Shown here piece after piece: positions 5,677-54,574 of a DNA stretch of 62,581 bases. The first letter of the stretch is position 1. Every line of letters begins with the position of its first letter. The position numbers were made by a program, and so were the translations under genes. Under the pieces are notes generated by a model. The model did not search any database, was not told the origin of the DNA, and was given only the letters and a program-made list of their open reading frames with translations. The stretch comes from Rickettsiales bacterium (lineage in GTDB: Bacteria; Pseudomonadota; Alphaproteobacteria; Rs-D84; CACZYB01): NCBI GenBank assembly GCA_031263095.1, contig JAISGI010000036.1:1-62581 (forward strand), read 5' to 3'.

Positions 5677-5754
5677 AAAAAAGGCCAGGGTTCCCCCGGC
5701 CTTTTTTCTCCTACTCCCAATTGAAAATATCGCGAAGCGAGATTTTCAATTGAG
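5677..5754. repeat. bipartite hairpin element, copy E1 (terminator hairpin plus CAATTGAAAA palindrome)
   Basis: The element consists of three parts. First is the hairpin A6-GGCCAGGG-ttc-CCCCGGCC-T6. Second is the linker CTCCTACTCC. Third is the hairpin CAATTGAAAAT-N13-ATTTTCAATTG. The right arm encodes the last codons and stop (CTC AAT TGA) of the minus-strand gene that ends at 5746. Confidence 0.75.
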
Positions 5755-6398
5755 CCTATATATCGAGTACGTAATCTGCTTCGCCGGGTCGTACATTACA
5801 TCCGTTTGAGCAACACCCGGAGTCGTGGTCTTGTCCCAAGTCCAAAATTTATAAACCGCATAGCCGGCAGAGGAGGTGCTAAGCACAATCTCGGCATTGC
5901 TCCCGGTGCCAGTCCATTCGAGGCCGTACGCTATGATAGAGCCGCTGCTTGTAAAAAAGTTGCTCCCGTCGCCTGTCCAGCCAAGCGAATATGCGAATTC
6001 CCGGTCGAAAATGGCCACGCGCGAAACCCTCTGGTTCTGCGCTCCAATCGCAAGGTCGAAACGATAGATTCCAAGGCCAAGCACGCCTCTGCCAAGCACG
6101 GTGCCAAAATTTCCGGCCGCACTGGCGACAAGCTGCCAGCGGCTGACGGCCGGCGTCCCGATACAGGACGAAACCTCGCCAGCTGAGATACTCGGACTGC
6201 CAAGCTTTGGTGCCAGGAATTGGCATGCCTCGGACACGGGCACGGTCGCCCCCTCAGGGCATAGCTCCGGCGTAAAACACGCCGAACAGGTATAATAGTT
6301 TGATGAGTTAGAGTTGTTGGCAGATAGTAGAAGAAGTGCGAATGCTAGGTATTTAGCCTTTTGCCCCCCCCCGTACACTTTTTGTTCATATATGTCAT
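5746..6398 (-). CDS. family-A small secreted Cys-containing protein, copy A1; phase-variable and out of frame with its ATG at the assembled G9
   Basis: ATG ACA TAT ATG AAC AAA AAG TGT ACG-G9 reads MTYMNKKCTGGGKRLNT-stop. The long ORF (..QKAKYLAFALLLLSANNSNSSNYYTCSAC.. to ..IYRLN) joins that ATG only at G10 or G7. A GTG at 6378 is in frame but sits far from the SD. Confidence 0.7.
6364..6372 (-). repeat. poly-G tract (G9 on the coding strand) in the 5' codons of A1
   Basis: C9 counted directly on the + strand. Confidence 0.95.
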
Positions 6399-6446
6399 TG
6401 TCGTCTTTCTCCTTTGGTTAGACTTAGACATGATACAACAAAAAGC

Positions 6447-7016
6447 TTACCTTTTCAAGTTCAACTTTGTGAAATAGAGGGTATCCACAAACCGCCCGTC
6501 CGGCTTGCTGTACCGGTCTTTGATGAAGTGTCCTTCAAGCTTGTACCCCGCACGCTTGGCCACCGCCGCGCTCTTTTTGTTCCGCTCGTCGCAGCGTATG
6601 GAGATTCGCGAAATCCCCGCCTTGAATAGTTCCGCTTCGACAAGCGCCAAGGCTTCGCCCATAAATCCATTGCCCTCCGCTCCCGCGTCAAGCATGTATC
6701 CGATTTCGCACGACCGGTCGCGCCCGCTGAACTTCTGGAAGTCTATCGCACCGACCATCTTGCCACCCGCGAATATGCCATAGTTCAGCATGCCCCACTC
6801 CTTGCGCTCCTTCTCCCAGCGCAAAAGAGCACGAAACTCGTCCTCGGCGCACTTGACCTCAAGCACCCAGTCAAGCCACGGAAGCAGATGCTCCCGGTTC
6901 GCCTGAACAAACGCGAACAACAGCTCCGCACTGGCGAAAGTAGTGGGCAGAGTCCTCAACACCACTCGCTCGCCGACAAGCCTCTTCCGCGCTTTTACAT
7001 ATTTCAAGTCCGTCAT
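6447..7016 (-). CDS. GNAT family N-acetyltransferase (RimJ/RimL-like)
   Basis: Shows the pattern typical of the RimJ/RimL-like acetyltransferase subfamily, including CEIGYMLDAGAEGNGFMGEALALV and KRAGYKLEGHF. Confidence 0.8.
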   Translation of the reverse strand: MTDLKYVKARKRLVGERVVLRTLPTTFASAELLFAFVQANREHLLPWLDWVLEVKCAEDEFRALLRWEKERKEWGMLNYGIFAGGKMVGAIDFQKFSGRDRSCEIGYMLDAGAEGNGFMGEALALVEAELFKAGISRISIRCDERNKKSAAVAKRAGYKLEGHFIKDRYSKPDGRFVDTLYFTKLNLKR

Positions 7017-8206
7017 TTTTCCACCTCATATAACTCTAAATCCGGATACCCGTCCGGATATATGTCCCGCCCGGACTTGTATTTCGTAATCCCGCGCACG
7101 ACAAGATTTTTCTGATATTCCTTCACCGCGCGAAGCGTAGCCCGGCCGAGGATTCCATCCACCGGCGCCCCGATTCGCTCCTGAAGCTCCTTGAGCTGCT
7201 CGATACTTAAAGGACGCACATCCACATCCGGCCGCCGGCTAAGCTCGTCGCCCTTGCCAACGATAGCGTCCGACAAAAGCCCGACCGAAAGCGCATACGA
7301 CACGCTCGCGTTCCACTTCATTATAAGCTTGAAATTCGGATAGACCAAAAACGCCGGCCCTGTGTCCCCCTGCGGCATGACAAGCGCGGCAGAAATGTCC
7401 GAACTCGGCAATTCGCTCCCGTCATACGCGCGAACACCCATCGCCGCCCACTCCGAAACCGTCTTGTACTCATAAAGGTTCACAGCCTCCCAAGCCTCGG
7501 CGTTCTCCTGCGCGAACCGCACCGCACGACCCCACTTCTCGCGCCCGTTCCATCCCATCTGCGAAAGATAGTTCGCGGCCGAGGAAAACGCGTCGGCCAA
7601 ATTGGAGAAAAGGTCGATTTTCTTGTCCCCGCTGCCGTCGATTGCATAGCGGACGAACGTAGAGGGCATGAATTGGAAATTCCCGAACGCCCCCGCCCAA
7701 GAACCTTTCGCCGACGCCGCCAAGTGCCCGTTTCCAACGATTCGCACGAACTCGACAAGCTCGCGCGTGAAGAACTCCGCCCGCCGCCCATCATACGCAA
7801 GCGTGGCAAGCGCACTGGCAAGCGCGAACCCGCCGAAATTCCGGCCATAGTTCGTCTCCATCCCCCAAAACGCGACAAGGATATGAGGCTGTACTTTGTA
7901 CTTGCGCGCGATTTGCTCGAGAAGCTTCGCATGCTTGCGCATCATCTCGCGGCCCGAGGCGATTCGCGCCGGGCTCATCGCCGCATCGTAATACTTCCAA
8001 AAGGATTTGATGAACTCCGGCTGCTTGCGGTCAAGCTCGACGATTTTCGGCTCATAAACAGCAATCGCAAGGACGGAATCGACGGGCGCCTGCGCAAGCT
8101 TGTGCTTTGCCGCCGCCTCGGCCTTGAACCGCCCCGCCCATTCCTCGAAAGTCTCGGCAAACGCCGGAGAGGATATTAGTAACGCGACTAAAAGGAGCGT
8201 CCTCAA
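7013..8206 (-). CDS. lytic murein transglycosylase (MltB/SLT_2-like) with a C-terminal peptidoglycan-binding domain
   Basis: Signal peptide, FWGMETNYG, GAFGNFQFMPSTF, and a C-terminal PG_binding_1-like segment (LQERIGAPVDGILGRATLRAVKEYQ). Confidence 0.85.
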   Translation of the reverse strand: MRTLLLVALLISSPAFAETFEEWAGRFKAEAAAKHKLAQAPVDSVLAIAVYEPKIVELDRKQPEFIKSFWKYYDAAMSPARIASGREMMRKHAKLLEQIARKYKVQPHILVAFWGMETNYGRNFGGFALASALATLAYDGRRAEFFTRELVEFVRIVGNGHLAASAKGSWAGAFGNFQFMPSTFVRYAIDGSGDKKIDLFSNLADAFSSAANYLSQMGWNGREKWGRAVRFAQENAEAWEAVNLYEYKTVSEWAAMGVRAYDGSELPSSDISAALVMPQGDTGPAFLVYPNFKLIMKWNASVSYALSVGLLSDAIVGKGDELSRRPDVDVRPLSIEQLKELQERIGAPVDGILGRATLRAVKEYQKNLVVRGITKYKSGRDIYPDGYPDLELYEVEK

Positions 8207-8730
8207 ATCTTGACCTCAAGCTCTTGGATCTTTTTATCCAGCTCATCTATAATCTCATCCGTGACATCAAGCGACTTGTTGATGATGACAATGGTCTGGG
8301 CATAGAGTATTACGTCGAAGCCATGCTGCTTCCCGACATTGCGCACGATGCCGTCAAGATAGTCCTCCTGAAGCTTTTTAAGCGTATCGACGAAAGCCTT
8401 CTTTATCTTCTGGTCGCGCTCGGCAATCTGCTTGTCGAAGTCGATGACCTCGCGCTGGAAAGCGCCGGCCTCTTTGGCGAAAGCCTCTTGCGACATGACA
8501 AGTTGCTTGGATTTCAGCTCGCTCTCCTTCTTCTCGAACTCCTTGCGCTTTTTCTCTATGTCGGCCTTCATGCCGTCAAGTGCCTTGTCCTTCTGCTTGT
8601 TTATTGAGCGCATGACCTTGGCCTTTTCGTTTATGCGCGAACCATCCATTATCCCGGCCTTGATTGGCGAAGCTTCCTGCGCCGACACCGCGCCAGCAAG
8701 GAACAATAGGGTAAGTAGCATTTTTTTCAT
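8203..8730 (-). CDS. OmpH/Skp family periplasmic chaperone
   Basis: Signal peptide followed by a Lys/Glu-rich coiled-coil of about 175 aa. It lies in an envelope-gene context. Confidence 0.75.
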   Translation of the reverse strand: MKKMLLTLLFLAGAVSAQEASPIKAGIMDGSRINEKAKVMRSINKQKDKALDGMKADIEKKRKEFEKKESELKSKQLVMSQEAFAKEAGAFQREVIDFDKQIAERDQKIKKAFVDTLKKLQEDYLDGIVRNVGKQHGFDVILYAQTIVIINKSLDVTDEIIDELDKKIQELEVKI

Positions 8731-8744
8731 TTTATTTTTCTCCT

Positions 8745-9259: not shown

Positions 9260-9261
9260 GA

Positions 9262-12001: not shown

Positions 12002-12030
12002 TTGACCCCGCCCCGGCTTCGTGGTATAAT
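12002..12030 (+). promoter_or_regulatory. sigma70-type promoter of A2 (-35 TTGACC, 17-nt spacer, extended -10 TGgTATAAT)
   Basis: TTGACC at 12002-12007 and TATAAT at 12025-12030. AGTCTAAC follows 5 nt later, as it does in the other cassette copies. Confidence 0.7.
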
Positions 12031-12057
12031 GCCAAAGTCTAACAAAAGGAGAAGACT

Positions 12058-12673
12058 ATGAACAAAAATCGTACGGGGGGGGGCAAATAAGTATTTAGCT
12101 ACTGCGCTTCTCCTGATTTCCGCCAACCACGCAAACTCCACCAATTATTATACATGTACAAGCTGCGGCGAGAACCGCCTGTTCACACTGGCCGAGGCGA
12201 CAAAATGCCTTGGCGCCGACACCTCCGGCAAATGGGAAAAGATTGTCGAGGCGGAGAACGACCTGGCAAACTCCGGCAAATACAACCGGACAGGAACTCT
12301 CCCGGCGGGAATTTACCGGCTCGAGTCATACAACCGACATTACGGCCTCGGCTCGGCCACGATACAGATTTCCGGCACGAAATACTATGGCATAAACAAC
12401 TCCATTCATCAGGATACGGCAAGGATAGACATAATGAATTCCGCGGTCGCAACCGGAAACGATAGACCGGAGCATAGCGCTTTCAACTGCTCGGTGGATA
12501 TTCCGGCATATTACACTGACGGCCATTGCAACGACGCAGGCATAGCCGAGGCCGACCTTGCCAAACACAATATAAACATAGATTGGAACACTTGGCGCCA
12601 AGTACCCGGCATAACTGCCGCCAATACCGAGACCTGCCTCGGCTGCGCCGCGATTTATAGGTGGAAAGAATAA
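12058..12673 (+). CDS. family-A small secreted Cys-containing protein, copy A2; phase-variable, OFF at G9
   Basis: ATG AAC AAA AAT CGT ACG-G9 reads MNKNRTGGGK-stop. At G8 or G11 it reads MNKNRTGGANKYLATALLLISANHANSTNYYTCTSC... through to ...CAAIYRWKE. The downstream frame is open from the tract to 12673, and track ORF 12434..12673 is its tail. Confidence 0.75.
12075..12083 (+). repeat. poly-G tract G9 in the 5' codons of A2
   Basis: Counted directly. Confidence 0.95.
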
Positions 12674-12718: not shown

Positions 12719-12760
12719 TGTGATATAATAGTATAGTCTAACCAAAGGAGAAAGACAATA

Positions 12761-13304
12761 ATGTTATATATGAACAAAAAGTGTACGGGGGGGGGCAAAT
12801 AAGTATCTGGCTTTAGCGCTTCTCCTAATATCGACTAACTCTCAATCTTCAAATTATTATACTTGTACCAATTGCCTAGTGCCCGAGCTGTGCGCCACAG
12901 GAGCTACGGCCGACTTCGCCAAGTATGATAAAGCGCTGAGCAGGGACGAAGCCGCCGCCGCATTCGGCACTCCGGCCAAGACGCGCTGGCAACTCGTCGC
13001 AAGCGGCAACGTCGATTCCCAACCCTATTCTATATCCTCATCCGGGGTGTATAGGATAACTGAGCGATGGTCCACCGGATTCCAGCCAAACGAATATCGC
13101 GATTCGTTCGCTTTCGCGCTCTCTTCCTCCGACGGTCAAGTAAAAATGGAGGGATGCCCACAAGTGAATCAAGGCAACGCACTTATTAGCCTCTGCAACG
13201 GCCAAGGCTCGCAAGTGCCGGGGATTTCAGACCAAGACATCGACGCCGAACTCCCACCATTTTCAGGAAGCGGATACAAATGGCAGCTATACAGGTTGCA
13301 ATAA
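12761..13304 (+). CDS. family-A small secreted Cys-containing protein, copy A3; phase-variable, OFF at G9
   Basis: ATG TTA TAT ATG AAC AAA AAG TGT ACG-G9 reads ...CTGGGK-stop. At G8 it reads ..TGGANKYLALALLLISTNSQSSNYYTCTNCLVPELCATG... through to YKWQLYRLQ, which is track ORF 12879..13304. Confidence 0.75.
12787..12795 (+). repeat. poly-G tract G9 in the 5' codons of A3
   Basis: Counted directly. Confidence 0.95.
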
Positions 13305-16564: not shown

Positions 16565-16644
16565 GCGAAGAAATCCCGCGGTCTCCGTGGGATTTCTTCT
16601 CACTATTCCAATTGAAAAAGCCGCTTGCGGATTTTTCAATTGAG
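16565..16644. repeat. bipartite hairpin element, copy E3
   Basis: The first hairpin is GAAGAAATCCCGCGG-tct-CCGTGGGATTTCTTC and the linker is TCACTATTC. The second hairpin is CAATTGAAAAA-gccgcttgcgg-ATTTTTCAATTG. Its right arm carries the A4 codons CTC AAT TGA. It is roughly 80 percent identical by eye to E4, in direct orientation. Confidence 0.8.
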
Positions 16645-17212
16645 TTTATACAGTGCTCCATACGCCGCATTCCCAACCTGAAAGTCCGCCTTGCTTATAT
16701 TGGGAACGTTGATTATATCGGAAGTTGCACGCGCCTGCACGAGCATGTTATAGCCTCCTTTGCCCGTTTCGTATATCCAGGAATTGTATCCATAACCAGT
16801 AGAATCTTGGAAATAGTGCAATATGAGAGAATTGACCGGATTTTCAAGCACGACTCCCTCTATATGGAAATTGGAACCGTCTATTGTCGAGACAAGCATG
16901 TATATCCCGGGCGCGATGTCCGGAATGTCCATTCTGCCAAGCGCGCCTATATCCTTTTTATTCTCGCGAACTTTCGTCCATCTGGAAAAGGCCGGACTGC
17001 CAAGACAATCCGTGAACTCCTCAATGCTAAGCACGGCATTGAGCTTGCAGTCCGCGCTGCGTCCAGCATTGACACAAGCCCCCGGCACGGCGCAAGCTGT
17101 GCAGGTATAATAATTAGATGATTGAGAGTTGTTGGCAGATAGTAGGAGAAGCGTTGCGAGTACTATTACTCTATTTGCCCCCCCCCGTACGCTTTTTGTT
17201 CATATATGTCAT
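16636..17212 (-). CDS. family-A small secreted Cys-containing protein, copy A4; phase-variable, OFF at G9
   Basis: ATG ACA TAT ATG AAC AAA AAG CGT ACG-G9 reads ..RTGGGK-stop. At G8 it reads ..TGGANRVIVLATLLLLSANNSQSSNYYTCTACAVPGAC... through to GALYKLN, which is track ORF 16636..17088. Confidence 0.75.
17178..17186 (-). repeat. poly-G tract (G9 on the coding strand) in the 5' codons of A4
   Basis: C9 counted on the + strand. Confidence 0.95.
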
Positions 17213-17308
17213 TATTGTCTTTCTCCTTTGGTTAGACTTATATATTATACCGCATTATAAAGATAAAAGAAAGTAAAAATTCAGATTTTGCCCAGCCAAA
17301 CATAAAAA

Positions 17309-19163: not shown

Positions 19164-19189
19164 TTGACAAATCATGGGGGGGGTAGAAT
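19164..19189 (+). promoter_or_regulatory. candidate promoter with a G8 tract inside the spacer
   Basis: TTGACA (19164-19169), then aatcat-G8 (a 14-nt spacer), then TAGAAT (19184-19189). It lies about 55 nt upstream of the SD and ATG of the gene starting at 19243. Confidence 0.45.
19176..19183 (+). repeat. poly-G tract G8, intergenic, inside the promoter spacer
   Basis: Counted directly. Confidence 0.95.
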
Positions 19190-19242: not shown

Positions 19243-19671
19243 ATGTATAATAAGATAATGCTTGCGGCGGTTGCTGCCATAGCGGTTTCAAGCGGAGCAT
19301 GGGCGGTAAATAAATCAGGCAGGCCGACTAATGCGCCAGCCAAAACCGTAACCGTCAAGTACGGTATAGTAGTAAGCAAGGAATTCGACTTCGGTGCGAA
19401 AGGTTCATGCAATAATGCCACATTCGGCGACCCGGCCAGAGGCGTAAATAAGGAATGCTACAGCGGCCTGGGTGAAAAAATAGCCAGCGAGGGCAAAGGT
19501 TTCACTCGCCCGGACTGCTGCACGGCAGTATTATATGGCAAGCTGACGTCGAAATCCGTACCGATGGGAAGTGCCTGCAACAACGCGACCTTCGGCGACC
19601 CAGCCAAAGGATATAAGAAAGCTTGCTACATTGACGGCCGCAAAGTCGCCGATGAAGGTGGCGAAATCTAG
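19243..19671 (+). CDS. small secreted Cys-rich protein with an internal duplication
   Basis: Signal peptide MLAAVAAIAVSSGAWA. The motif [KG]GSxCNNATFGDPA[RK]G..K.CY occurs twice. Confidence 0.65.
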   Translation: MYNKIMLAAVAAIAVSSGAWAVNKSGRPTNAPAKTVTVKYGIVVSKEFDFGAKGSCNNATFGDPARGVNKECYSGLGEKIASEGKGFTRPDCCTAVLYGKLTSKSVPMGSACNNATFGDPAKGYKKACYIDGRKVADEGGEI

Positions 19672-24026: not shown

Positions 24027-24770
24027 ATGGCTGAAGAAAAAAAAGACGGGCTTAGCTTCGCTGATTATCAGATTCGGGAAAAGAACCGCATCATAGCCAA
24101 GACTTACCTGAATATATTTCGGCAACTTCACGTGATAGACGCCGGACTGCCGACTCTAAACTCCGAATTCGTGACACTCCCGAACGAGGTGATCGACCTC
24201 CTGCCCGAGGTCTCCGGCGGCCAAAAGCTATGGCAGCATATAAAGAATTTGAAAGACGGCAGCACGCCTATGGACAAAATCGACGCCATGCTGCTTCCGT
24301 TCGGAGGAGAGGTATTCACGGACAAGAAAAAGCTCGCCCTCTATACCGAATACACGCACGCCGCGGACAAGGCTGAAACGGCGCCCGCGTTCATCGTCTC
24401 CGCGCCCGATTCGGCCAAGGGGGACAAGGATGTTCTGGACGCCCTGCGCTCATACAAAAACACGCCCGAGGGGCTCGAGGCGTTCAAGCAGAAAATGTCG
24501 AAATTCGGTGCGAACTGGCGCCAAGGTATAGATGATGTCCTTGCCGTTTCGACTGCAAAGGACAAGGATGAGCTTGTAAAGACATTCGATGGCCTGAAAA
24601 CATTCGACACCGCTCTCTCCCTGTGGCAGGAGGCCGCATCCGTGGTCAAGACTCCGACCGCCCCCGGCCTGGCCAAGGCTGGCGCCAATATGGTCGAGTA
24701 TGAGAAGTATCTGCCCATGTTCGGCCCCGCCGGAACCGAACTGCTGAACAAGCTGAAAGGCCTTAAATGA
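24027..24770 (+). CDS. hypothetical cytoplasmic protein, paralogous module shared with the next gene
   Basis: No signal peptide. The C-terminal MVEYEKYLPMFGPAGTELLNKLKG matches MKEFGEYLPKFGLEGSRLLEKLHA in the next ORF. Confidence 0.6.
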   Translation: MAEEKKDGLSFADYQIREKNRIIAKTYLNIFRQLHVIDAGLPTLNSEFVTLPNEVIDLLPEVSGGQKLWQHIKNLKDGSTPMDKIDAMLLPFGGEVFTDKKKLALYTEYTHAADKAETAPAFIVSAPDSAKGDKDVLDALRSYKNTPEGLEAFKQKMSKFGANWRQGIDDVLAVSTAKDKDELVKTFDGLKTFDTALSLWQEAASVVKTPTAPGLAKAGANMVEYEKYLPMFGPAGTELLNKLKGLK

Positions 24771-31200: not shown

Positions 31201-32329
31201 CTATTGTATCGCCCTGACGGCATTTACGCACTCGTCGATTTCCTTGAAAAGCTTGTCCACCTCAAGCATGCCGACAACGCCCGCCGCGCCCGAGGCAAGT
31301 CCGCCGACCGCCGCCACGCCCGAGGTTATCATTCCCCCGACGCCCGAGCCAAGCTTGCCTATGCCCTTTGCTTCCTGATGGGCGAGCTTGCTCTTGACCT
31401 CGGCATCGGCCAAGGCATAGTTCTTGCCGCGATTATAATCCGCGTCTTGCAGATACTTCGCATACGCGTCATCGTCCCAAGTCCACGAAGCCATGTCCAC
31501 CGCCAGTCTCGAGTTGTCGTTGTAAGTAGCTATCAGGTTGCCCAAGGTCGAGCCATAAAGCACCGGCTTGTCGCTCGTGCAGGTGGTGGAAGCAATGGGC
31601 GCGAACTTGACGGAGGTCTCGGTAAAGGTTATGTCATCGGACGAGCAGCCCTCTATGCTGTCGTGCGCGTCGAGTATCTGGGCGGCAAGCTCGACTTGGT
31701 CGTCAAGAAGACTGTCCATATCCCTGTCTATGTCCGCTTTACTTTTGTAGTTGGCCATTACCGCGCCCTTCATTGTTTCGGGAAGCGAACCGAGCGCCGC
31801 GCCCATATCGGCGTTGTTGCCCTCTTTTATGAAAGCGTCCTCTCTGGCAATCGAGGCTTTCGCATGCTCCTCTTTCGCCTTTTTAAGATCGCTCGAGTTT
31901 TTAATCTGCCCGGCAAGGTTCAGGCCGCCGCCGATAAGGGACGCCGCACCGCCGCCTATTGAAAAGCCAAGCGCAACCTGAAGCGTCTGCTTGTCGCGTA
32001 TTTTCCCGCACGCGGTTTTCGCTTTGTTGATAAGGGCCCAAGTCTCCGCGCCCGCACCCACGCTTGCAACGGCTATTCCGACATCCCCGGCCGGAGCTTC
32101 GTAGGTCGAAGCCACAGGCTCCGCCGCAACGCTTTCCGCCGTGGGAACAGCCGCAGGATTGTTGTGTATAGCGCCGCCGCCGGCTGCAACCGCGCCACTG
32201 GAGCGCCTGGAAACAGGAGCCTTTGGCCGGTTGTCCCGCCTCTGCGCTCCGGCTTCACCGCCGATTGCCGAGATTAAAACTAAAAGGGAAAGACTATACG
32301 CCCCCCCCCGTGCACAGTTTGTTCGTCAT
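31201..32329 (-). CDS. family-B secreted glycine-zipper / coiled-coil protein, copy B1; phase-variable, OFF at G9
   Basis: ATG ACG AAC AAA CTG TGC ACG-G9 reads MTNKLCTGGGV-stop. At G8 it reads MTNKLCTGGAYSLSLLVLISAIGGEAGAQRR... and joins track ORF 31201..32115. It is paralogous to the gene at 39461..40588: both have the ACGKI motif, Gly-zipper segments, and a C-terminal ..EIDEC..A.. tail. Confidence 0.7.
32301..32309 (-). repeat. poly-G tract (G9 on the coding strand) in the 5' codons of B1
   Basis: C9 counted on the + strand. Confidence 0.95.
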
Positions 32330-32382
32330 CGTCTTCTCCTTTTCATTAGACTAGGATATTATACCACAAAAACGTCCGTGAG

Positions 32383-37531: not shown

Positions 37532-39112
37532 GTGGCGGAGGAAAAGTACAAGGTTCTGGCGCGCAAATATCGGCCGTCCTCCCTGCCCGAGCTTATCGGG
37601 CAGGAGGTTCTGGTAAGGACGCTTACCAACGCCATAGCCCAAAACCGCCTCCACCACGCCTATATTTTCACAGGGATAAGGGGAGTAGGTAAAACCTCGA
37701 CCGCCCGCATTCTGGCCAAGTCCCTCAACTGCTCCGCCCAGGACGGGCCAAGCGTCGAACCCTGCGGCAAGTGCGAGAATTGCCAGGCGATTAAAGAAGA
37801 CCGCCACATGGACGTAATCGAAATGGACGCCGCCTCCCATACCTCGGTCGACGACATACGCGAGATTATCGACGGAGCGCAGTACAAGCCCACCATGGCC
37901 CGCTATAAGGTGTACATTATAGACGAAGTGCACATGCTCTCGAAATCCGCTTTCAACGCTATACTGAAAACGCTCGAGGAGCCGCCGCCCTACGTCAAGT
38001 TCATATTCGCCACGACCGAAATTCGCAAGGTTCCGCCGACCGTGCTATCAAGGTGCCAGCGGTTCGATTTGGCCGCGGTCGAGCCGGAGACGCTCTCCGC
38101 CCACTTCAAGAAAATCGCCAGCTTGGAGGGGATAAGCATAGACGACGACGCACTCTCGATTGTCGCCAAGGTCGCCGACGGCTCGGTCAGGGACGGGCTC
38201 TCTTTCCTCGATCAAATCATCGCCAATTCTATCGAGGATGACAAGGCCATAACCGCCGCCGACGTCGCCAAAATCCTGGGCCTCTCGGCACGCGGAGCAA
38301 CGCTCGACCTGTTCGACGCAATCGCCGCCGCCGATACCAAGGGCGCTCTCGTGATACTTGAAAACGCGCAGAAAGCAGGCGCCGACCCGGTAATGCTGCT
38401 TGGCGACTTGCTCGAGGTTGTGCATTTTCTGACCAGGACCAAGGTCCAGCCCGACTCCCTCTCCTCGCTTCCCATGACCGGGGCCGAGCAGGAACGCCTC
38501 CGCGAAATGGCGGCCAAGCTCTCGATAGCCACGCTCGCCCGCACATGGCAGATGTTGATAAAAGCCTTCGACGAAATGGCCATAGCTCCCTCGCCCGCCG
38601 CCGCGCTTGAAATGGCGGTGATAAGGATAGCGCACATCGGCACCCTGCCCTCTCCCGCCGAGGTCATAGCAAAAATCGAATCCGGCGCTTCCTCGGCTGA
38701 GGAACAAAAAAAAAAATTAGCTCTGTCGCAGGATGACGCCGCACCCACTCCGCTCTCGCTCGAAACATCCGAAGCCCTCTCCGCGCTTTTGAAATCCAAG
38801 CGCAGCTTCCTCCTTTCCCAAGACGTCGAAAAGTACGCAAGGTTTGTAGGATTTGACGGCGGCGCCCTGCGCCTGAATTTCGCGCCCTCCGCGCCCCGAG
38901 AGATTGTCTCGAACCTCAACGCCTTCTTCGCCGAAAACCATATGAACATAAAGGTGGAAAAGTCGGACGAGCCGGGCGCTCCCACGGTTGCCGAGGCCGC
39001 CGAAACCCTGTTCAACACACAGGTGGCCGAGTTTGCGTCAAACCCGATACTCAAGGAGATTCTGGAAATTTTCCCCAATTCTTATGTTGCAAAAATAGAA
39101 ACCGCGGTCTAG
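37532..39112 (+). CDS. dnaX: DNA polymerase III subunit tau (and possibly gamma through recoding)
   Basis: ARKYRP..L.ELIGQE, Walker A GIRGVGKTS, zinc module C..C..C..C, DEVHMLS, and SRC motif LSRCQRF. Confidence 0.95.
   Translation: MAEEKYKVLARKYRPSSLPELIGQEVLVRTLTNAIAQNRLHHAYIFTGIRGVGKTSTARILAKSLNCSAQDGPSVEPCGKCENCQAIKEDRHMDVIEMDAASHTSVDDIREIIDGAQYKPTMARYKVYIIDEVHMLSKSAFNAILKTLEEPPPYVKFIFATTEIRKVPPTVLSRCQRFDLAAVEPETLSAHFKKIASLEGISIDDDALSIVAKVADGSVRDGLSFLDQIIANSIEDDKAITAADVAKILGLSARGATLDLFDAIAAADTKGALVILENAQKAGADPVMLLGDLLEVVHFLTRTKVQPDSLSSLPMTGAEQERLREMAAKLSIATLARTWQMLIKAFDEMAIAPSPAAALEMAVIRIAHIGTLPSPAEVIAKIESGASSAEEQKKKLALSQDDAAPTPLSLETSEALSALLKSKRSFLLSQDVEKYARFVGFDGGALRLNFAPSAPREIVSNLNAFFAENHMNIKVEKSDEPGAPTVAEAAETLFNTQVAEFASNPILKEILEIFPNSYVAKIETAV
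38706..38716 (+). promoter_or_regulatory. A11 slippery run inside dnaX, a candidate recoding site
   Basis: The zero frame reads CAA AAA AAA AAA TTA. The +1 frame reads TAG at 38718-38720. The -1 frame reads ATT AGC TCT GTC GCA GGA TGA, ending at 38736. Confidence 0.5.
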
Positions 39113-39460: not shown

Positions 39461-40588
39461 CTATAGGGCCTTCGCCGCTTTCTGACACTCTTCTATCTCT
39501 TTCTCAAGCTGCGAGAATTGGGCAATGCCTATGCCTCCGGTGATGGCCGATGCCAACCCGCCAGCAGTCGCAAGGCCAGCGGTTATAATGCCGCCCGTCC
39601 CGGTCGCAAGCTTGCCAAGACCCTTTGGCTCTGGCCTGCCGCCGGCCTTTATTATGCCGTCTTTTTTGGCCAGCTCGGACAGTCTTTCGACAACACCCTG
39701 TTTTAATGTATCGAACTGTACTTTGCTTTCGACGATATCATCCTCCTTGAAATTTTGGAAGAAACCTTCGGGTAGCGTACCCGTAAGCTCAGAATTCGAA
39801 CTATTGTACACGCATGAGGCGGAGTACTTGACCCGTATCGAAGCTGTTACAAGTATGCCATATGTTAAAGTCTCGTCATAACTATCCAAAGCTTCTCTTA
39901 GTGATTTATAAACTTTACCGCAATCCATCTCATTACCAACAATTCCTCTGATCTTATTGGCTTCCTCATTGACATCCATTCTAATATCGCGGACAGAGGC
40001 AAGACACTCATCGATAGTAATCTCCTCGCAATTATTGGCTATGTAGTAGGAGAAAAATCTGATGTCGTAGTAATCATAATCACTATCATCATAGAAATAC
40101 CTATTTATATAGTATGCCAAGTATTCGGCGTCAAATCCAAGCCCCTCGGCGTCGCCTCCCTCCTCCTCGGCCTTCTTCTCGTCAAACCTGTTCTTCACCT
40201 GCCCGACGAAGTTGAGGCCGCCCGCAAGGGTCGAAACGCCGCCGCCCGCGACCCCGCCAATCATAAGGCCTTTAATTTGCCTAAGGTCGATTTTGCCGCA
40301 CGCGGATTTTGCCTCTCCGGAAGATTGCTGAGCTTGGGCAAGCTTGGCCTCCGAGTCCGACAGGCTTCGCCTTAGCCGGGCGATTTCGGCGTCCCTGTCT
40401 ATCGCCTGCTGCTGAAGCCTTAGGATTTCGCCGGAGTCGGCCGAGGGCTGGACTATTGGTTGGCTTGCGCCGGAGCTCCCGGGCGACCCGCGCGCGCGTT
40501 GCGCTCTTCCGGCCGACGCGCCTGCGGATACAAGGGTGAAGATAGCCAGAAAGACCAGGCTATCCGCCAATCTTCCACCCCCCCCCAT
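39461..40588 (-). CDS. family-B secreted glycine-zipper / coiled-coil protein, copy B2; the poly-G tract includes the start codon and is in frame at G9
   Basis: AT-G9-T reads ATG GGG GGG GGT GGA.., giving MGGGGRLADSLVFLAIFTLVSAGASA (a signal peptide). A weak SD (AGGA) lies 4 nt upstream. The upstream ATG at 40605 would join only at G10. Confidence 0.7.
   Translation of the reverse strand: MGGGGRLADSLVFLAIFTLVSAGASAGRAQRARGSPGSSGASQPIVQPSADSGEILRLQQQAIDRDAEIARLRRSLSDSEAKLAQAQQSSGEAKSACGKIDLRQIKGLMIGGVAGGGVSTLAGGLNFVGQVKNRFDEKKAEEEGGDAEGLGFDAEYLAYYINRYFYDDSDYDYYDIRFFSYYIANNCEEITIDECLASVRDIRMDVNEEANKIRGIVGNEMDCGKVYKSLREALDSYDETLTYGILVTASIRVKYSASCVYNSSNSELTGTLPEGFFQNFKEDDIVESKVQFDTLKQGVVERLSELAKKDGIIKAGGRPEPKGLGKLATGTGGIITAGLATAGGLASAITGGIGIAQFSQLEKEIEECQKAAKAL
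40578..40586 (-). repeat. poly-G tract (G9 on the coding strand) overlapping the B2 start codon
   Basis: C9 counted on the + strand. Confidence 0.95.
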
Positions 40589-40642
40589 ATATTCCTGATA
40601 TTCATAAAAGTACTATACCACCAAAACGCCGCCCGTACAACC

Positions 40643-44072: not shown

Positions 44073-45173
44073 TTAGTTTAGTATCCCATGCAAAATTTCC
44101 GCCGCCCGCGCCGACGGCGAAAGCCCGCCTTTCGGTGCAATAGCTTGCCGCAGGGCCAAGACGTCCCGCCTGTACTCCGCCATCTTCTTCGGCGACCTGA
44201 TAAGGTCAAGCAGCGCACCCGCAAGCTTATCGCCCATAGCATCGCCTTGGATAAGCTCCGCAACCATCCGCCGGCCAAGTATTATGTTCGGCAAAGTCAC
44301 ATCCCGTATTTTCACAAGCCTTTTCGCAATGAAGTACGTAAGCGGCGAGGTTTTATAAGTCGCCACGCACGGCACTCCCAAGGCCGCAAGCTCCAAGACG
44401 GCAGTGCCCGAAATCGAAATCGCGCCCGCACACTCGGCAAATGCCTTGATACGCGCCTCACGCCCAGCGACAATCTTGGGTTTCACACACCACCGCGCCG
44501 TCTCCGAACGTACGAATTTCTCGGACGTAGCGACCACAGGCATGACGATTCGCACGCCCGGCCGCGCCGCTTGGATAATCTCCGCCGCGCGCTCGAAAAC
44601 AGGCAGCAGGCGCCGCGCCATAGCCGCGCGCGAACCCGGCAGCATGACGATAGAGCTCCCCGCCGCACGCTTCACGGCAAGCTCGGCTATAGGGTGCCCG
44701 ACCGCAAAAGTCCTAAGCCCGTGGCGCGTAAAATACTTCCGCTCGAACGGGAAAAAGCAAAGCAGATAGTTAAAAATCCGCGCGAATTTCCGCGCCCGCT
44801 TGGGCTTCCACGCCCACACCTGCGGCGCCACATAGTGCACGCACACCAACCCGGGCATAACCCGCTTCACGCGCTTGACAACCGCAGTGCAAAACCCCGG
44901 CGAGTCGACGCTCAGGAGCATATCAGGCTTCTCCGCGACAACGGCGGCCACAGTCTGCCTTACCCGCCGCCAAATGGTAAAGAACCGCGCAAGCACTTCG
45001 AACAATCCCATGACCGCGATGTCGCGTATGTTGAAAAGGGACTTGAAACCGCGAAACCGCGACATCTCCTCGCCGCCGACGCCGACGAACCGCACGCCGT
45101 CCATGTTGGCCATAATCCCGGCACCCAAAATATCGCCCGAGGCCTCCCCGGCTATGATGAAGATTTTCTTCAT
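44073..45173 (-). CDS. lpxB: lipid-A-disaccharide synthase
   Basis: MKKIFIIAGEASGD.LGA, with LpxB family length and pattern. Confidence 0.9.
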   Translation of the reverse strand: MKKIFIIAGEASGDILGAGIMANMDGVRFVGVGGEEMSRFRGFKSLFNIRDIAVMGLFEVLARFFTIWRRVRQTVAAVVAEKPDMLLSVDSPGFCTAVVKRVKRVMPGLVCVHYVAPQVWAWKPKRARKFARIFNYLLCFFPFERKYFTRHGLRTFAVGHPIAELAVKRAAGSSIVMLPGSRAAMARRLLPVFERAAEIIQAARPGVRIVMPVVATSEKFVRSETARWCVKPKIVAGREARIKAFAECAGAISISGTAVLELAALGVPCVATYKTSPLTYFIAKRLVKIRDVTLPNIILGRRMVAELIQGDAMGDKLAGALLDLIRSPKKMAEYRRDVLALRQAIAPKGGLSPSARAAEILHGILN

Positions 45174-46183
45174 TCGGCTATTTTAGCATTTTTCCGAAGC
45201 GATTGCAACTTCATGATTTGCTCCCACGCAGCGGCAAGCGCAAAGGACAATAGCACGCAGTACACGGCGTAATGCCGCTTGCCAATCGTGAAATGGCCGA
45301 GTATGGCAAACGCCGCCGCTTGGAACACATACGCGCCATAGCAGTATTTCGATACATGCCCAACCCACGAAAATCTGTTCAGCCATGAAAATATCGCCCC
45401 CGCCGACGTCGCCATGCCAAGCAAAAGAATGGAGAATACGGCGACAAGCTGTATGTCCAAACTGCCTGCGCTTTTCGAGAAAATCAACGCGTTGAAGATA
45501 AAGCCAAGACCAAGGACGCTCGCCGCTGTCCATACCCAATATCCGCCCCGCGCGGGTTTGATGTGCACCGCTATTTCGCGCAGGATTATGCCAAGTCCCA
45601 TGCCGGCGACGGCGCGCGCAATCGACCTGGGAAAGGCATTGAACATCACGCCGGCATGCACGCCCAAGCTGCCGAAATTCGCTTCTAACGCCGTATAGCA
45701 AAGCCAAGCAACAACGGCCGTAAGGAACAGAAGTTTCCTCCGTTCGAAATGCAAAAGCGCGAAATAGAACAGCATACTTGTCCAGAAATACGCACACACA
45801 AACCACGCGAAGAAATTCACGCTACGGCCAGGCAGTCCTACGTTCACAAGCATAAGCAGGCTCGATATGATGTCTTTGTTCCAATCCTGGCCAAGCGCCA
45901 GCAAAAGGATTATGCTTGCCGCATAGGCTGGCCACAGCCGCCAGAACCGCCGCAACGCGAACTCCTTGAACGTAAGCGGCCGCCGGATAAACCCGTCGTA
46001 CAGCAGGTATCCGCCTATTATAAAGAAAAAATCTACTATTATATCGGTCGGGCGCAGGTATCGGGCTTCCCACCACCTGTCGAATACCCCGTGCCTAAGT
46101 ATTATAAGTATTGTGAACAGGATCCGGAGGAATTCTATAGACCATATTGCCCCCCCCTTATGTTTATCCTGTAATTTCAACAT
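45170..46183 (-). CDS. acyltransferase family 3 (OafA/YrhL-like) membrane protein; G8 tract in codons 9-12, in frame as assembled
   Basis: It starts MLKLQDKHKGGAIWSIEFLRILFTILIILRHG and has many transmembrane segments. The tract reads AAG GGG GGG GCA. Confidence 0.8.
   Translation of the reverse strand: MLKLQDKHKGGAIWSIEFLRILFTILIILRHGVFDRWWEARYLRPTDIIVDFFFIIGGYLLYDGFIRRPLTFKEFALRRFWRLWPAYAASIILLLALGQDWNKDIISSLLMLVNVGLPGRSVNFFAWFVCAYFWTSMLFYFALLHFERRKLLFLTAVVAWLCYTALEANFGSLGVHAGVMFNAFPRSIARAVAGMGLGIILREIAVHIKPARGGYWVWTAASVLGLGFIFNALIFSKSAGSLDIQLVAVFSILLLGMATSAGAIFSWLNRFSWVGHVSKYCYGAYVFQAAAFAILGHFTIGKRHYAVYCVLLSFALAAAWEQIMKLQSLRKNAKIAE
46150..46157 (-). repeat. poly-G tract (G8 on the coding strand) in the acyltransferase 5' codons
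   Basis: C8 counted on the + strand. Confidence 0.95.
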
Positions 46184-46184
46184 A

Positions 46185-47813
46185 TTACTTGCCCGCGCGC
46201 GACGCCTCGATAAGCTGGGAGTATGCCCCCTCCTCAGTAAGGATTGACGCCGCCGCATCAAGCGCAAGCTCGCTCACCCGCGCGAACGGATAAGAGGCCG
46301 GACAGGCCGCCCGCACCCGCTCTACATCCGGCGCCACGGGCGATTTTATGCGAGGACGGTTGTCCTGAAACTTGCCAAGCTTCACGCTGTCGAGAAAGCT
46401 TGTAATGTCGTCGGCCGAGACCATATAGTAAAGGCATACAAGCGGCGACAACCCGACTTTGGATAACGGATAGCCGTCCATGGAGTATATGGACTTGACC
46501 GCGAAGCTCGCCTTGCGCCCGTCGGAAATATCGAAAGTCTGCTCTATGTTGCCGTTGCCGAAGGTCGGACTGCCCACGCTGACCGCACGCTTTTTGTTGT
46601 CGAGGATGAAAGCGAAAGCCTCGGCCGCGCCGCGCGTGGTGTTGTTGGCGATTACGACTATGGGCTTGCCGTTCGCGGCGTCGCCGGATTTCGCGGTATA
46701 GGCCTGGCTCGGCTTGCCGTCAGCACCTACCGTAAGCATGATGTCCCCGCCGTCGATGAAGAGGTTCGCGGCCTCCACAGCCTCCTCGCCCTCGCCGTTC
46801 ACTACCGCGCGCACGTCGATGATAATGCCCTTGTCGGACGAAACGTTCACAAGCGCGTTCGAGATTTCCTTGGCCGAGCCCTTCTTGAAGTTGTGTACGA
46901 CGACGACCGGAATCCCGTTCTTTTTTAAGACCGAGACCGAACGGAACTCCGCCTTGTTCTTGCGCACGAAAGTCTCGCCCGGCCTGCCCGAGATGTAGGA
47001 TACATAGTTGAGTCCGGTAATCGCCTCGCCTCCGCCGCCTATCGCCGCCTCGAACTCCTCGTCCGTCATGTCGGAAACAGGCATGGTATCGACATGGGTT
47101 ATGGCGTCCCCCTCTGCTATTTGAGACATCGAGATTGGCGAACCGGCAAGGATGCTAAGCACTTGTGCCCCGAACGGCAGCCGCCGCCACGTAATGCCAA
47201 GCGTGGTCGCACCCGTTGCTCCGTCGTCTTCAAGCACGCCGCGCTCGCTGTACTTCGCGTTGGAATCAAGCGATTTGAGCATGTATAAGGCGCTTATGTG
47301 ATAGAGCCGCTCCGGCGACATCTCGGCAAGCTCGCGGTTGCTGTCGCGCAAAGTAGCGATTATATTGACAATTGCGTTCGCCCACTCGGTCGGGCTGTTC
47401 GCCGCCGGCCGCGCGAAATTACCCAGAAGCTTGAGCTTCTTCGTATGTAAAAGTATGCGCGTGTCCGTGGTCGTAAGCTGCACCTCGCTGGTGAATGGAT
47501 CAAGCGATTCTATAATCCGCCCGGCCATGTCCTCGTACTTTACCGGCACCACGAAATTGTCGTGCACGACTTCGAAAAGCTTCTCATAGAACGCGCGCGA
47601 GGCTTCGATTGGAAACCCGCCAAGCTTGTCCGAGCCCTTTGTCCAGTACTCGCCCTCTTTGTATGTGTGTTTGTCAAGCTCGGCGCGAGGCAGGGGCTTG
47701 ACCCTGACTTCGCCCTCGGAATCTATGCTGTTGATTATCACGTTCTGCTGCGCCGCCGAAAGTGGCAGACAGGCAAGCACCGCAACCGCGATAAGGCCAA
47801 GGACTCTCCTCAT
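46185..47813 (-). CDS. S41 (C-terminal processing peptidase) family homolog with a PDZ domain; the catalytic dyad appears substituted
   Basis: Signal peptide MRRVLGLIAVAVLACLPLSA and S41-like architecture. The region that normally reads ..GSASASE.. is NNTTRGAAE. The ..TFGKG.. lysine motif is TFGNG. Confidence 0.75.
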   Translation of the reverse strand: MRRVLGLIAVAVLACLPLSAAQQNVIINSIDSEGEVRVKPLPRAELDKHTYKEGEYWTKGSDKLGGFPIEASRAFYEKLFEVVHDNFVVPVKYEDMAGRIIESLDPFTSEVQLTTTDTRILLHTKKLKLLGNFARPAANSPTEWANAIVNIIATLRDSNRELAEMSPERLYHISALYMLKSLDSNAKYSERGVLEDDGATGATTLGITWRRLPFGAQVLSILAGSPISMSQIAEGDAITHVDTMPVSDMTDEEFEAAIGGGGEAITGLNYVSYISGRPGETFVRKNKAEFRSVSVLKKNGIPVVVVHNFKKGSAKEISNALVNVSSDKGIIIDVRAVVNGEGEEAVEAANLFIDGGDIMLTVGADGKPSQAYTAKSGDAANGKPIVVIANNTTRGAAEAFAFILDNKKRAVSVGSPTFGNGNIEQTFDISDGRKASFAVKSIYSMDGYPLSKVGLSPLVCLYYMVSADDITSFLDSVKLGKFQDNRPRIKSPVAPDVERVRAACPASYPFARVSELALDAAASILTEEGAYSQLIEASRAGK

Positions 47814-52599: not shown

Positions 52600-53314
52600 A
52601 AATACCTTTAAGCGACTGCCTAAGCATTTTGCGCCGCTGCCCGAACGCGGCCTTTGCAATCTCTTCGACCCTCGCGAGTTCCGCAACACTCGGCCTCTCG
52701 GCCAAACGCGTAAATCCCACCACGGACGAGACCACTTTCGGCGCCGGCACAAAACACCTTGGCGCTACGTCGAACAAAACGCGGCATGAATAGGCAAGCT
52801 GCGCCAGAACCGAAATCCGGCCATAGTCCCTGCTGTGCGGCCGCGCGCAAATCCGCCGCGCCACCTCTTTCTGGAACATAAGGGTCATCGACGGCACGCG
52901 CTCGGCCATAAAAACCCACCGCACAAGCAACGGCACACTTATGTTGTACGGCAGATTGGCGCAAATCCGCACCTCCTCTCCAAAGGCAGAAAAGTCCACC
53001 TCCATCGCGTCCGCCTGTATGATTTCAAGCCGCTCACCATAAACACCGCGAATCTCCTCCAAAATGCCAATCGCGCGAGCGTCAAGCTCGATTGCCACTA
53101 CTTTCGCCGCACCATTGGCAAGCAAAGAACGCGTAAGCCCCGCCGGCCCCGGCCCGACCTCGACCACCACGGAACCGGCCAAACCCGGCACCGCCCGCGC
53201 GATTCGGTCGGTAATATTGAGGTCGCAGATGAAATTCTGCCCCATGGTTTTCAAAGCCCTGAGCCCGTACCGCTCTATAAAGTCCGCAACCTGCGGCAAC
53301 CCGTCGTAATCCAT
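52505..53314 (-). CDS. rsmA: 16S rRNA (adenine1518/1519-N6)-dimethyltransferase
   Basis: LGQNFICD, SAM motif VVEVGPGPAGLT, NLPYNIS. Confidence 0.9.
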   Translation of the reverse strand: MDYDGLPQVADFIERYGLRALKTMGQNFICDLNITDRIARAVPGLAGSVVVEVGPGPAGLTRSLLANGAAKVVAIELDARAIGILEEIRGVYGERLEIIQADAMEVDFSAFGEEVRICANLPYNISVPLLVRWVFMAERVPSMTLMFQKEVARRICARPHSRDYGRISVLAQLAYSCRVLFDVAPRCFVPAPKVVSSVVGFTRLAERPSVAELARVEEIAKAAFGQRRKMLRQSLKGIFTEQALLSAGLRPELRAEQLSPQDFLRLARL

Positions 53315-53372
53315 ACGGGCAAGGATACCCCAACCCTTGCAACATTGCAATATTTATGATATAATCAGGCCC

Positions 53373-53945
53373 ATGACAAGAAAAGACATACGCGGCGCCA
53401 GCATGGTCGAGCTTTTGCTCTACATCGGCATAATAATCACCGTGACGCTCGCCGGCGTCAAGTTCCAAAGCCAGGCCATAGAAAAGACACGCCAGGCCGA
53501 GCTCCAGATGACCCTTTCCGACGCCGAGAAAAAGATAAACGAGCTCTACCTCGGCCGCCCCTGGGGTACGATGACCGAGGGGGAGCGGGCAAAGTACCTG
53601 CTCGAGCGCGGCGTAAGCCTCACCTCGCCGTGGAAATCCGGCATGCAGGACTATGGCACGGGCGCGAACGGCAGGAAGCTCCTCGGCAACATGACCGTCT
53701 CGACAAGCGACGGGATAAGCAGCAATAGCGCGATTCGCATGCCCCACTTCGCCGTGCACGTCAAGAACCTGCCACGGCCAAGCTGCATCTGGGTCGCCAC
53801 TTCGCAATCCTCCGTCGCCGCCTGCGTTTCGGTCAACAACGCGGTAGCGGTGTCCGAAACCGACTGCATAAGGGAAATCGGCACCGCCACTTCCCGCTGC
53901 GACAGGGACAATAACGAGGTTATAGTGTTCTTCAGGAAAGAGTGA
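53373..53945 (+). CDS. type IV pilin-like (class III signal peptide) protein
   Basis: MTRKDIRG|ASMVELLLYIGIIITVTLAGV has Gly at -1, Glu at +5 and a hydrophobic helix. Two Cys pairs are present in the C-terminal domain. Confidence 0.65.
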   Translation: MTRKDIRGASMVELLLYIGIIITVTLAGVKFQSQAIEKTRQAELQMTLSDAEKKINELYLGRPWGTMTEGERAKYLLERGVSLTSPWKSGMQDYGTGANGRKLLGNMTVSTSDGISSNSAIRMPHFAVHVKNLPRPSCIWVATSQSSVAACVSVNNAVAVSETDCIREIGTATSRCDRDNNEVIVFFRKE

Positions 53946-53946
53946 T

Positions 53947-54574
53947 ATGCGAACTTCAAAACTACCCCCCCCCATTCGTCGCCGCGATTCTCTGCCTGAT
54001 CTCCTTGGTCGCCCGCGCAAGCGTCAAGCCGCAGGCGACGTTTTCCCCGGCCGAGCTTGCTAGGTCGATAACCGGCTCGCGCGCCCAGGAAGTAAAGATT
54101 GACGAACAGCTGAAAGCCCAGGTCGCGGCCGTCAGACAGGCCTCCGAGAATTTCAAGGCCGCCCAACTCGCCTACGCCGAAAAACTTAAATCCATAAAGA
54201 ATTCCATAGCCGAGCTGAAAAACAAGAAACGGGGTATCGGCAAGGATAGGAAAAAACTGAACCGCGAGCTTTCAAGAACAGGCCAGAACATCAAACGCAG
54301 ATACGGCGCCCTGAACCGCACGGGCGGGAAATCTTCGGCGGAATATACAGCCGTCAAGGCCGAGGTCGAACGCTACAACCAGGCGGTAAAACAGATAAAC
54401 GAGCAAAAACGCAACATCGCGGCCCTCAAGTCCGCCGAGCAGCGTATCAAGCTCTTCGACAAGGCCGCCGCAAGACAATCCTCGCACTCCGACCGCTCCG
54501 CCGACAAAATGGCCGACCGGCTCGCCACTGTCCAAGACGCGGTCGATGGCCTTCGCGGCGATATAGGAATATGA
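53947..54574 (+). CDS. secreted basic coiled-coil protein; phase-variable, with C9 out of frame with the SD-linked ATG
   Basis: SD AGGAAAGAG lies upstream of ATG 53947. At C9 it reads MRTSKLPPPIRRRDS... and stops after 38 codons. At C8 it reads MRTSKLPPPFVAAILCLISLVARA, a signal peptide joined to the 200-aa ORF. The track start GTG 53942 overlaps the pilin stop codon. Confidence 0.6.
53965..53973 (+). repeat. poly-C tract C9 in the 5' codons
   Basis: Counted directly. Confidence 0.95.

Follow-up and report, generated by a model that had tools for sequence, protein, structure and literature searches.

The nine G/C homopolymers analysed here lie on contig JAISGI010000036.1 (positions 1 to 62,581, referred to as the window) of a metagenome-assembled genome (MAG; GCA_031263095.1) of a Rickettsiales bacterium, and their closest described counterparts are the simple sequence repeat (SSR) contingency loci of other bacteria. 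In Campylobacter jejuni NCTC11168, about 29 independent tracts are distributed over 1.64 Mb (roughly one per 57 kb); they are G8–G11 in surface-structure genes, are mostly located in the 5′ part of open reading frames (ORFs) with a few in intergenic regions, and occur in mixed ON and OFF states. The members of two paralogous families, Neisseria opa and the outer-membrane protein (OMP) genes of Helicobacter pylori, have their own promoters and are switched independently by frameshifts in a slippage repeat of the signal-peptide region. Switches located in the promoter spacer are found in Neisseria porA (poly-G) and opc (poly-C) and in Bordetella fim (poly-C), where the common lengths straddle the 16–18 nt range. 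In the poly-A system of Mycoplasma hyorhinis vlp, a conserved block of promoter, 5′ untranslated region (5′UTR) and signal peptide with a homopolymer switch is placed on divergent mature regions. Within the Alphaproteobacteria, mononucleotide SSRs early in the ORF of Bartonella badE were experimentally shown to drive host adaptation (PMC11466379), and poly(G-C)-tract genes were predicted in Ehrlichia, a member of the Rickettsiales (PMC4885862). Homopolymer contingency loci are thus already documented in this class, and the novelty that a preliminary description of the window had claimed for such a lineage was put too strongly; notable features of the present locus are a switch module shared by unrelated protein families, the local density of tracts and the uncultured lineage. 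With a probability of roughly three in four, we interpret the nine tracts as homopolymeric SSR contingency loci, which would subject lineage-specific secreted proteins, an acyltransferase linked to lipopolysaccharide (LPS) and a pilin-adjacent protein to slipped-strand phase variation.

A run scan of the window (55.2% GC) recovered nine G/C homopolymers of at least 8 nt, seven of 9 nt and two of 8 nt, and each of them lies where the preliminary description had placed it (Table 1). The run-length spectrum is bimodal, with combined G and C counts of 1190, 206, 46, 1, 0, 2 and 7 at lengths from 3 to 9 nt. The counts drop to ∼0.2 per added base (about five-fold), lengths 6–7 are nearly empty, with a lone C6 at 58127, and nine runs then appear at 8–9 nt. 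Extrapolation from length 5 gives an expectation of ∼0.45 runs of at least 8 nt (Poisson P(≥9) ∼1e-9). A single run of this length was present in ∼980 kb of metagenome loci from other bacteria, which were fetched with the housekeeping gene product RluD as an anchor and from which two loci tied to this analysis were left out. The eight tracts located in coding sequence (A1–A4, B1, B2, the acyltransferase gene and the gene starting at 53947) begin at codons 2–10 after the ATG and finish by codon 12; the binomial probability that at least eight of nine tracts fall in the first 12 codons, which make up 3.8% of the window, is ∼4e-11. The ninth tract is located in a promoter spacer, between the −35 and −10 hexamers. 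On a codon-usage-based map of 63 genes, none of the identified housekeeping genes (clpX, gap, pheS/T, dnaX, ftsH, msbA, lolCE, lpxB, recR and secF) contains a tract, as had been stated before, and ∼14 further signal-peptide genes, including two OMP beta-barrels, are also tract-free. Over-representation combined with exclusion from core genes, which is expected of SSR contingency loci, is observed in the window, and all tracts are long enough to slip (about 7–8 nt or more for poly-G/C). The local density is approximately one tract per 7 kb (9 in 63 kb). Rfam and tRNA scans of the window returned no match.

The reading frames are consistent with switching by changes of tract length. At the assembled length, the Shine-Dalgarno-linked ATG is out of frame with the long ORF at six of the eight coding tracts (A1, A2, A3, A4, B1 and the 53947 gene), whereas B2 and the acyltransferase gene are in frame; the count of six agrees with the preliminary description, with nuances that concern GTG starts and B2. 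In A1, the ATG frame yields MTYMNKKCTGGGKRLNT* (the asterisk denotes a stop) and the 208-codon ORF follows in another frame, so that the gene is OFF at G9 and in frame at G10 or G7; an in-frame GTG is present at 6376–6378 but is not preceded by a Shine-Dalgarno sequence. A2, whose ATG frame yields MNKNRTGGGK*, and A4 are OFF at G9 and ON at G8 or G11. In A2, A3, A4 and B1 the ATG frame ends 1–2 codons past the tract (…GGGK*, …GGGV*) and the third frame within 10 codons. Across the six OFF genes, the ATG frame ends 1–29 codons beyond the tract; most wrong frames end within 10 codons, and the other two within 17 and 38. Downstream of the tract, the OFF genes remain open for 172–368 codons with no second lesion. 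Computed gene by gene, the correction that brings the ORF into frame is +1 nt for A1, −1 nt for A2–A4 and B1, and 0 for B2 and the acyltransferase gene. A 1-nt change is thus sufficient to toggle the frame at the eight tracts of codons 2–12, and the ninth tract sets a −35/−10 distance.

These features bear on the alternative that the OFF genes are dead or dying, or that the frameshifts are sequencing or assembly errors at homopolymers, in which case the tracts would have no function. Such an explanation would account for the prevalence of out-of-frame coding tracts (six of eight) in a contig that comes from a MAG, and for the truncation of most of these genes by gene callers. However, open ORFs that are free of lesions past the tract are not how decaying pseudogenes would be expected to look, and conservation among the paralogues extends to the promoter, Shine-Dalgarno sequence, ATG and signal peptide. 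Since A1 requires +1 and A2–A4 and B1 require −1, neither a uniform assembly error nor a single recoding rule explains the pattern. The gap at 6–7 nt, where hardly any runs occur, shows that the tracts do not form the tail of a sloppy length distribution. The tract lengths also recur in a second assembly (see below), and they are therefore not assembler noise. Two of the Logan contigs of that assembly break near tracts, which could indicate artefacts, but the break in contig L083 falls in a 34-nt stretch common to A1 and A3. On balance, we consider that decay or artefact is improbable.

The preliminary description regarded the uniform G9 length and the predominance of OFF states as odd, whereas both are to be expected. 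An OFF state is the default for two lengths out of three, and under random phase the probability of finding at least six of eight genes OFF is 0.47. In C. jejuni, mutational bias holds tracts mainly at G9–G10, with insertions dominating at G8 and deletions at G11 and above (PMC8355987). Since G9–G10 is the mutational equilibrium in that organism, a uniform G9 across the five genes that share the switch module described below would be anticipated.

A uniform G9, together with tract lengths that are identical in two assemblies, would also fit a mechanism at the RNA level, in which RNA polymerase stutters on G9 or the ribosome shifts on GGG-GGG-GGG, giving constitutive low expression from a DNA tract of fixed length with no heritable switching; dnaX of the same genome appears to use homopolymer slippage (A11). 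The mixed shifts (+1 for A1, −1 for A2–A4 and B1, 0 for B2 and the acyltransferase gene) have no fixed direction and fit no single recoding rule, and the tract in the promoter spacer cannot act in this manner. Moreover, a tract long enough for polymerase stutter would also be unstable in replication, so both mechanisms would coexist. An RNA-level mechanism in place of phase variation is therefore unlikely, though somewhat less so than decay or artefact.

Genes A1–A4 and B1 have in common a module of ∼150 nt that comprises a −10 box, the 5′UTR, the ATG, G9 and a signal peptide. Its layout is a TG-extended TATAAT, the 5′UTR AGTCTAAC(C)AAAGGAGAA(A)GAC, the ATG with MNKK-type codons following it, AACAAA…G(T/C)AC, G9 and a similar signal peptide (CTGGANKYLALALLLISA compared with CTGGAYSLSLLVLISA). 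The five occurrences of the leader motif in the window are all at these tract genes. In the 75 nt upstream of the tract, A1, A3 and A4 are 85–88% identical to each other and 65–71% identical to A2 and B1, and B2 is unrelated in this region. The 5′ stretch of the module is thus 65–88% identical, whereas the mature parts are 25–40% identical among A1–A4 or unrelated in the case of B1, and the tract persists across paralogues of such low identity. Conservation of the tract and module across diverged paralogues, together with tract length and placement, early wrong-frame stops, intact ORFs and the opposite corrections of A1 and A2–A4, forms the basis of our interpretation as phase-variable loci. 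Since A1–A4 and B1 possess the module while B2 and two paralogues of a related MAG (P0016 and P0017) have other signal peptides, it is conceivable that the switch is a portable unit of ∼150 nt (extended −10 box, fixed 5′UTR, ATG, G9 and signal peptide) that was grafted by recombination onto unrelated families of secreted proteins; we put this forward only tentatively. If it is correct, an uncultured alphaproteobacterium that is not a classical pathogen would possess a phasome several times denser than that of Campylobacter, and if switching is confirmed, the shared module would show how a switch can spread between unrelated genes.

In this arrangement, A1–A4 and B1 resemble opa and the H. pylori OMP genes, as several paralogous secreted proteins are encoded, each with its own promoter and with a slippage-prone repeat within the signal-peptide codons. 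The likeness is one of operation only: the unit repeated in those genes is CTCTT or CT, whereas here it is a G homopolymer, and the A and B proteins, which match no Pfam family, are not Opa or Hop beta-barrels; neither the CTCTT pentamer nor the Opa beta-barrel product that define opa is found. In the vlp/vsp genes of Mycoplasma, which have a comparable conserved block, the poly-A is in the promoter and the products are lipoproteins, whereas here the poly-G is coding and no lipobox is present. Bartonella badE and Ehrlichia share with the window homopolymer tracts early in adhesin or surface-protein ORFs of Alphaproteobacteria, but these organisms are vector-borne pathogens, the protein families differ, and a shared switch module was not reported there.

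A1–A4 are paralogues (33–41% identity to A1 in an initial alignment of corrected sequences, 25–40% in a later alignment) that encode small cysteine-containing secreted proteins with the conserved motifs NYYTCxxC, CIGTPxKSRW, PGIYR.D, TPGIT and IYKLN. Four copies lie within 11 kb of the window, and their 5′ and 3′ ends are conserved while the middle is variable. Clustering of a multigene family of this kind, which has ∼8 members in the related MAG, would also be expected if the A and B copies were silent donors for gene conversion into an expression site, as in Anaplasma msp2/p44 or Neisseria pilS, with the tract being incidental, and the nearest named relative is labelled Rickettsiales. Donor cassettes, however, have no expression signals of their own, whereas every A and B copy carries a −10 box, 5′UTR, Shine-Dalgarno sequence, ATG and complete signal peptide, and gene conversion gives no reason why the sole lesion should always be a G9 at the same codon. 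We regard silent cassettes as very unlikely, the least probable of the explanations considered. B1 and B2 are paralogues (28% identity, E 5e-21) of a helical family with glycine-rich segments. The B1 protein is unrelated to the A family, yet its promoter, 5′UTR and signal-peptide module are homologous to those of A1–A4. In B2, which is ON at G9, a second ATG at 40605 lies 19 nt upstream of the first, ∼6 nt after the −10 box and near the 5′ end predicted for the transcript, and is in frame at G7 or G10, so the gene is OFF only at G8 and G11, i.e. in one phase in three. With two start codons in different frames, B2 would be predicted to give a protein in two of three tract phases, with differing N-termini. 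Neither family has a Pfam or NCBIfam match; the AlphaFold models were unreliable (predicted local distance difference test, pLDDT, of 52 for the A family and 38 for the B family), and Foldseek searches of the PDB found nothing below E 0.25. The signal peptides predict that the A and B products are secreted, and they may be exposed at the surface.

Length variation was examined in a second sequence source, the Logan assembly of SRR14710921, whose contigs are 99.3–100% identical to the window. Exact-protein look-ups for tract neighbours provided DNA from four short Logan contigs (L001, L083, L085 and L086) and a 5′-truncated contig of the Joint Genome Institute (JGI; L084); the same look-ups gave no record for pheT, lpxB, the pilin gene and all proteins of the related MAG. 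Several observations weigh against the interpretation as phase-variable loci. The Logan lengths equal those of the window at all four tracts covered, A2 (9), B2 (9), the promoter (8) and 53965 (C9), so no polymorphism was seen among the tracts compared, although the MAG may itself derive from this read set, and the comparison is then weak either way. None of the five module genes is ON in the consensus. The ON-frame products were sought as 12 constructs for A1–A4, B1 and the 53947 gene by exact look-up in ∼15 billion public proteins, and none was found. The spacer of the tract-bearing promoter is 14 nt at G8, which is 2–4 nt under the usual 16–18 nt and three steps from the 17-nt optimum. The architecture (positions, frames, stops and intact ORFs) fits the slipped-strand phase variation proposed earlier, and length variation was not seen at the four tracts. 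Two contig ends were considered as signs of length heterogeneity and rejected: L083 ends in the 34-nt A1/A3 stretch, an exact repeat deduced from the tract-region sequences, and L001 ends 4 nt past the tract, which is not where a bubble between two lengths would be expected to branch. L083 differs from the window (6396–8725) at 17 of 2330 positions, while L001 and L085 are identical to it, which suggests that more than one strain, or a recombinant segment, is present in the sampled population.

Under the interpretation as contingency loci, slipped-strand mispairing in replication would add or remove one G. At the eight coding tracts, the change would determine whether the Shine-Dalgarno-linked ATG is in the reading frame of the signal peptide and mature protein, and at the ninth it would alter the −35/−10 spacing. 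Each locus would switch independently and reversibly, and if the tracts are hypermutable, a clonal population would contain many combinations of the products A1–A4, B1/B2, the LPS-operon acyltransferase, the protein adjacent to the type IVb pilin and the secreted protein under the tract-bearing promoter. These products may be surface-exposed, and a host, phage or predator could be the selective agent. The 'network' of the preliminary description is not supported: the loci are independent, a 'phasome', and no linking regulator was found. As in C. jejuni, many independent G/C tracts occur, most of them in 5′ regions of ORFs, and some genes are ON while others are OFF. The present genome differs from that of C. 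jejuni, a member of the Campylobacterota with about 30% GC, in being an alphaproteobacterial MAG with 55% GC; its targets are orphan secreted proteins and not glycosyltransferases, a single module recurs at five of the loci, and switching is here a prediction from sequence. If reads confirm switching, poly-G contingency loci would be extended to a rare, uncultured and moderately GC-rich alphaproteobacterial lineage, and the two orphan families would stand out as the molecules whose variation matters most to the organism. Their members would then be candidate surface antigens, phage receptors or host-interaction factors.

The lineage has one recognisable relative, a MAG that bears the label 'Rickettsiales bacterium' (locus tags LBL52_…; hereafter the sister MAG), with proteins such as MDR1008984.1 / LBL52_01890, LBL52_01590, _01650, _01775, _01875 and _00345. 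Among 5.8 billion clustered proteins, homologues of the A and B families are few and come almost entirely from this MAG, with some short JGI contigs in addition; an exhaustive hidden Markov model search gave 29 family members. The sister MAG contains ∼8 A paralogues, most of them on one 105-kb contig. One of its proteins, P0003, is the sole outside A1-like homologue and reads …KPKEKTDDKELTTNGGGQKAKYIAFALLLL…, in which the translated leader leads into three glycines at the tract position (...TTNGGGQKAKY...). Judged from the protein, the G tract has apparently been kept in the sister MAG. P0016 and P0017 have ordinary signal peptides with no glycine run. The other sister-MAG paralogues are annotated from internal starts (MPELC…, MPGVC…, MTKDC…, MNKMSSLEE…) and have no signal peptide, as would be expected of gene callers where the 5′ end is out of frame; A1, A3, A4 and B1 were called in this manner in the window. 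Most public members of the two families thus appear to be mis-called from internal starts, with the tract being overlooked. In the larger relatives P0032, P0038, P0039 and P0040, the A-family domain is located at the C-terminus behind other N-terminal regions, which in P0038 and P0040 consist of cysteine-rich CP(A/S)GTY-type repeats. The A domain, as judged from these proteins, may serve as a C-terminal module that is reused in different contexts and ends in IYKLN or IYRW. In the RluD-anchored metagenome scan, the closest relatives were just 52–57% identical and none had tracts. A scan of viral contigs gave no match.

Table 1. Coordinates of the G/C tracts and of the genes and promoters that carry them (positions in the window)
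Feature	Position	Strand	Description
A1 G9 tract	6364–6372	−	Poly-G on coding strand; codons 6–9 or 9–12 from ATG at 6389 or 6398
A1 gene and 5′ module	5746–6435	−	−10 TATCAT 6430–6435; leader AGTCTAACCAAAGGAGAA 6407–6424; ATGs 6398, 6389; ORF to 5746
A2 G9 tract	12075–12083	+	Equal length in Logan contig L001
A2 gene and promoter	12002–12673	+	TTGACC-N17-TATAAT 12002–12030; leader 12036–12053; ATG 12058
A3 G9 tract	12787–12795	+	
A3 gene	12724–13304	+	−10 12724–12729; leader 12735–12752; ATGs 12761, 12770; OFF at G9, ON at G8/G11
A4 G9 tract	17178–17186	−	
A4 gene	16636–17259	−	−10 17244–17249; second TATAAT 17254–17259; leader 17221–17238; ATGs 17212, 17203
Promoter with G8 in spacer (19176–19183)	19164–19189	+	TTGACA 19164–19169, N14, TAGAAT 19184–19189; just after terminator hairpin
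Secreted-protein gene, 142 aa (MYNKIMLAAVAAIAVSSGAWA...)	19243–19671	+	Downstream of tract-bearing promoter; no Pfam family
B1 G9 tract	32301–32309	−	
B1 gene and promoter	31201–32386	−	TTGACT-N17-TATAAT 32358–32386; A-type leader 32334–32352; ATG 32329; OFF at G9, ON at G8/G11
B2 G9 tract	40578–40586	−	Start codon 40586–40588 takes first G of tract; equal length in Logan contig L085
B2 gene	39461–40617	−	−10 TATAGT 40612–40617; ON at G9 from ATG at 40588
Acyltransferase G8 tract	46150–46157	−	Codons 9–12
Acyltransferase family 3 gene	45170–46183	−	PF01757, E 1.7e-17; ON at G8
C9 tract	53965–53973	+	Sole poly-C on coding strand; codons 7–9 of gene starting at 53947
Secreted coiled-coil protein gene	53942–54574	+	Directly downstream of type IVb pilin gene 53373–53945 (PF08805)

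The tract of the promoter upstream of gene 19243 lies between recognisable −35 and −10 hexamers, as in porA, opc and fim, and sets the spacer length. Unlike in those promoters, the assembled spacer is well below 16–18 nt, and the functional range would require G10–G12; a scan for consensus promoters found none at 19164–19189. The G8 length is the same in Logan contig L086. The ATG at 53947 is OFF at C9, with a stop after 38 codons, and ON at C8/C11, where a textbook signal peptide is encoded (MRTSKLPPPFVAAILCLISLVARA...). An in-frame GTG at 53942–53944, from which the NCBI annotation starts, gives a signal peptide with a poor n-region, and the Logan assembly encodes the identical 210-aa GTG-start product, including YPPPF, which gives C9 there too. 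The products of genes 19243 and 53947 have no Pfam or NCBIfam match. The acyltransferase gene is located between an S41 peptidase gene and lpxB, the start of which is overlapped by its stop. The three genes form an operon at 44073–47813 on the − strand, with the G8 in the acyltransferase gene, and an OFF frameshift in the latter might be polar on lpxB, an essential lipid A gene.

Several further homopolymers were observed. In the window, two A8 runs, at 24037–24044 (+) and 56894–56901 (A8 on the − strand), are each located in codons 3–6, in the genes 24027–24770 (MAEEKKDG…) and 55796–56905 (MEKKEPT…, a bacterial Ig-like domain protein); they may be mere lysine codons or additional slippage-prone starts. 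The sole other G9 in the RluD-anchored loci (L051, Ga0118677_10069159, 1001–1009) lies ∼14 nt upstream of a divergently oriented ATG on a contig of 58.5% GC. A scan of GTDB representatives with the leader and G7 returned one unrelated AT-rich match only. In CASGAK010000079.1 (L002), from an uncultured AT-rich bin, a prepilin-type gene (…KAFTLAEVLITLGIIGIIAAM…) contains a G12 at 7349–7360, after ∼11 codons; translation from the ATG meets TAG just past the tract, and a G11 would bring the pilin back into frame. We regard it as a predicted, independent poly-G pilin switch in an unrelated bacterium, which came up through a chance match to the leader pattern. Within dnaX (37532–39112), the A11 at 38706–38716 (+) lies at approximately codon 392 of 526, and the shifted frames stop almost at once (NKKKN*, TKKKISSVAG*), a layout like that of the tau/gamma slippage site in Thermus, where an A9 causes transcriptional slippage, and in E. 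coli, which uses a −1 frameshift.

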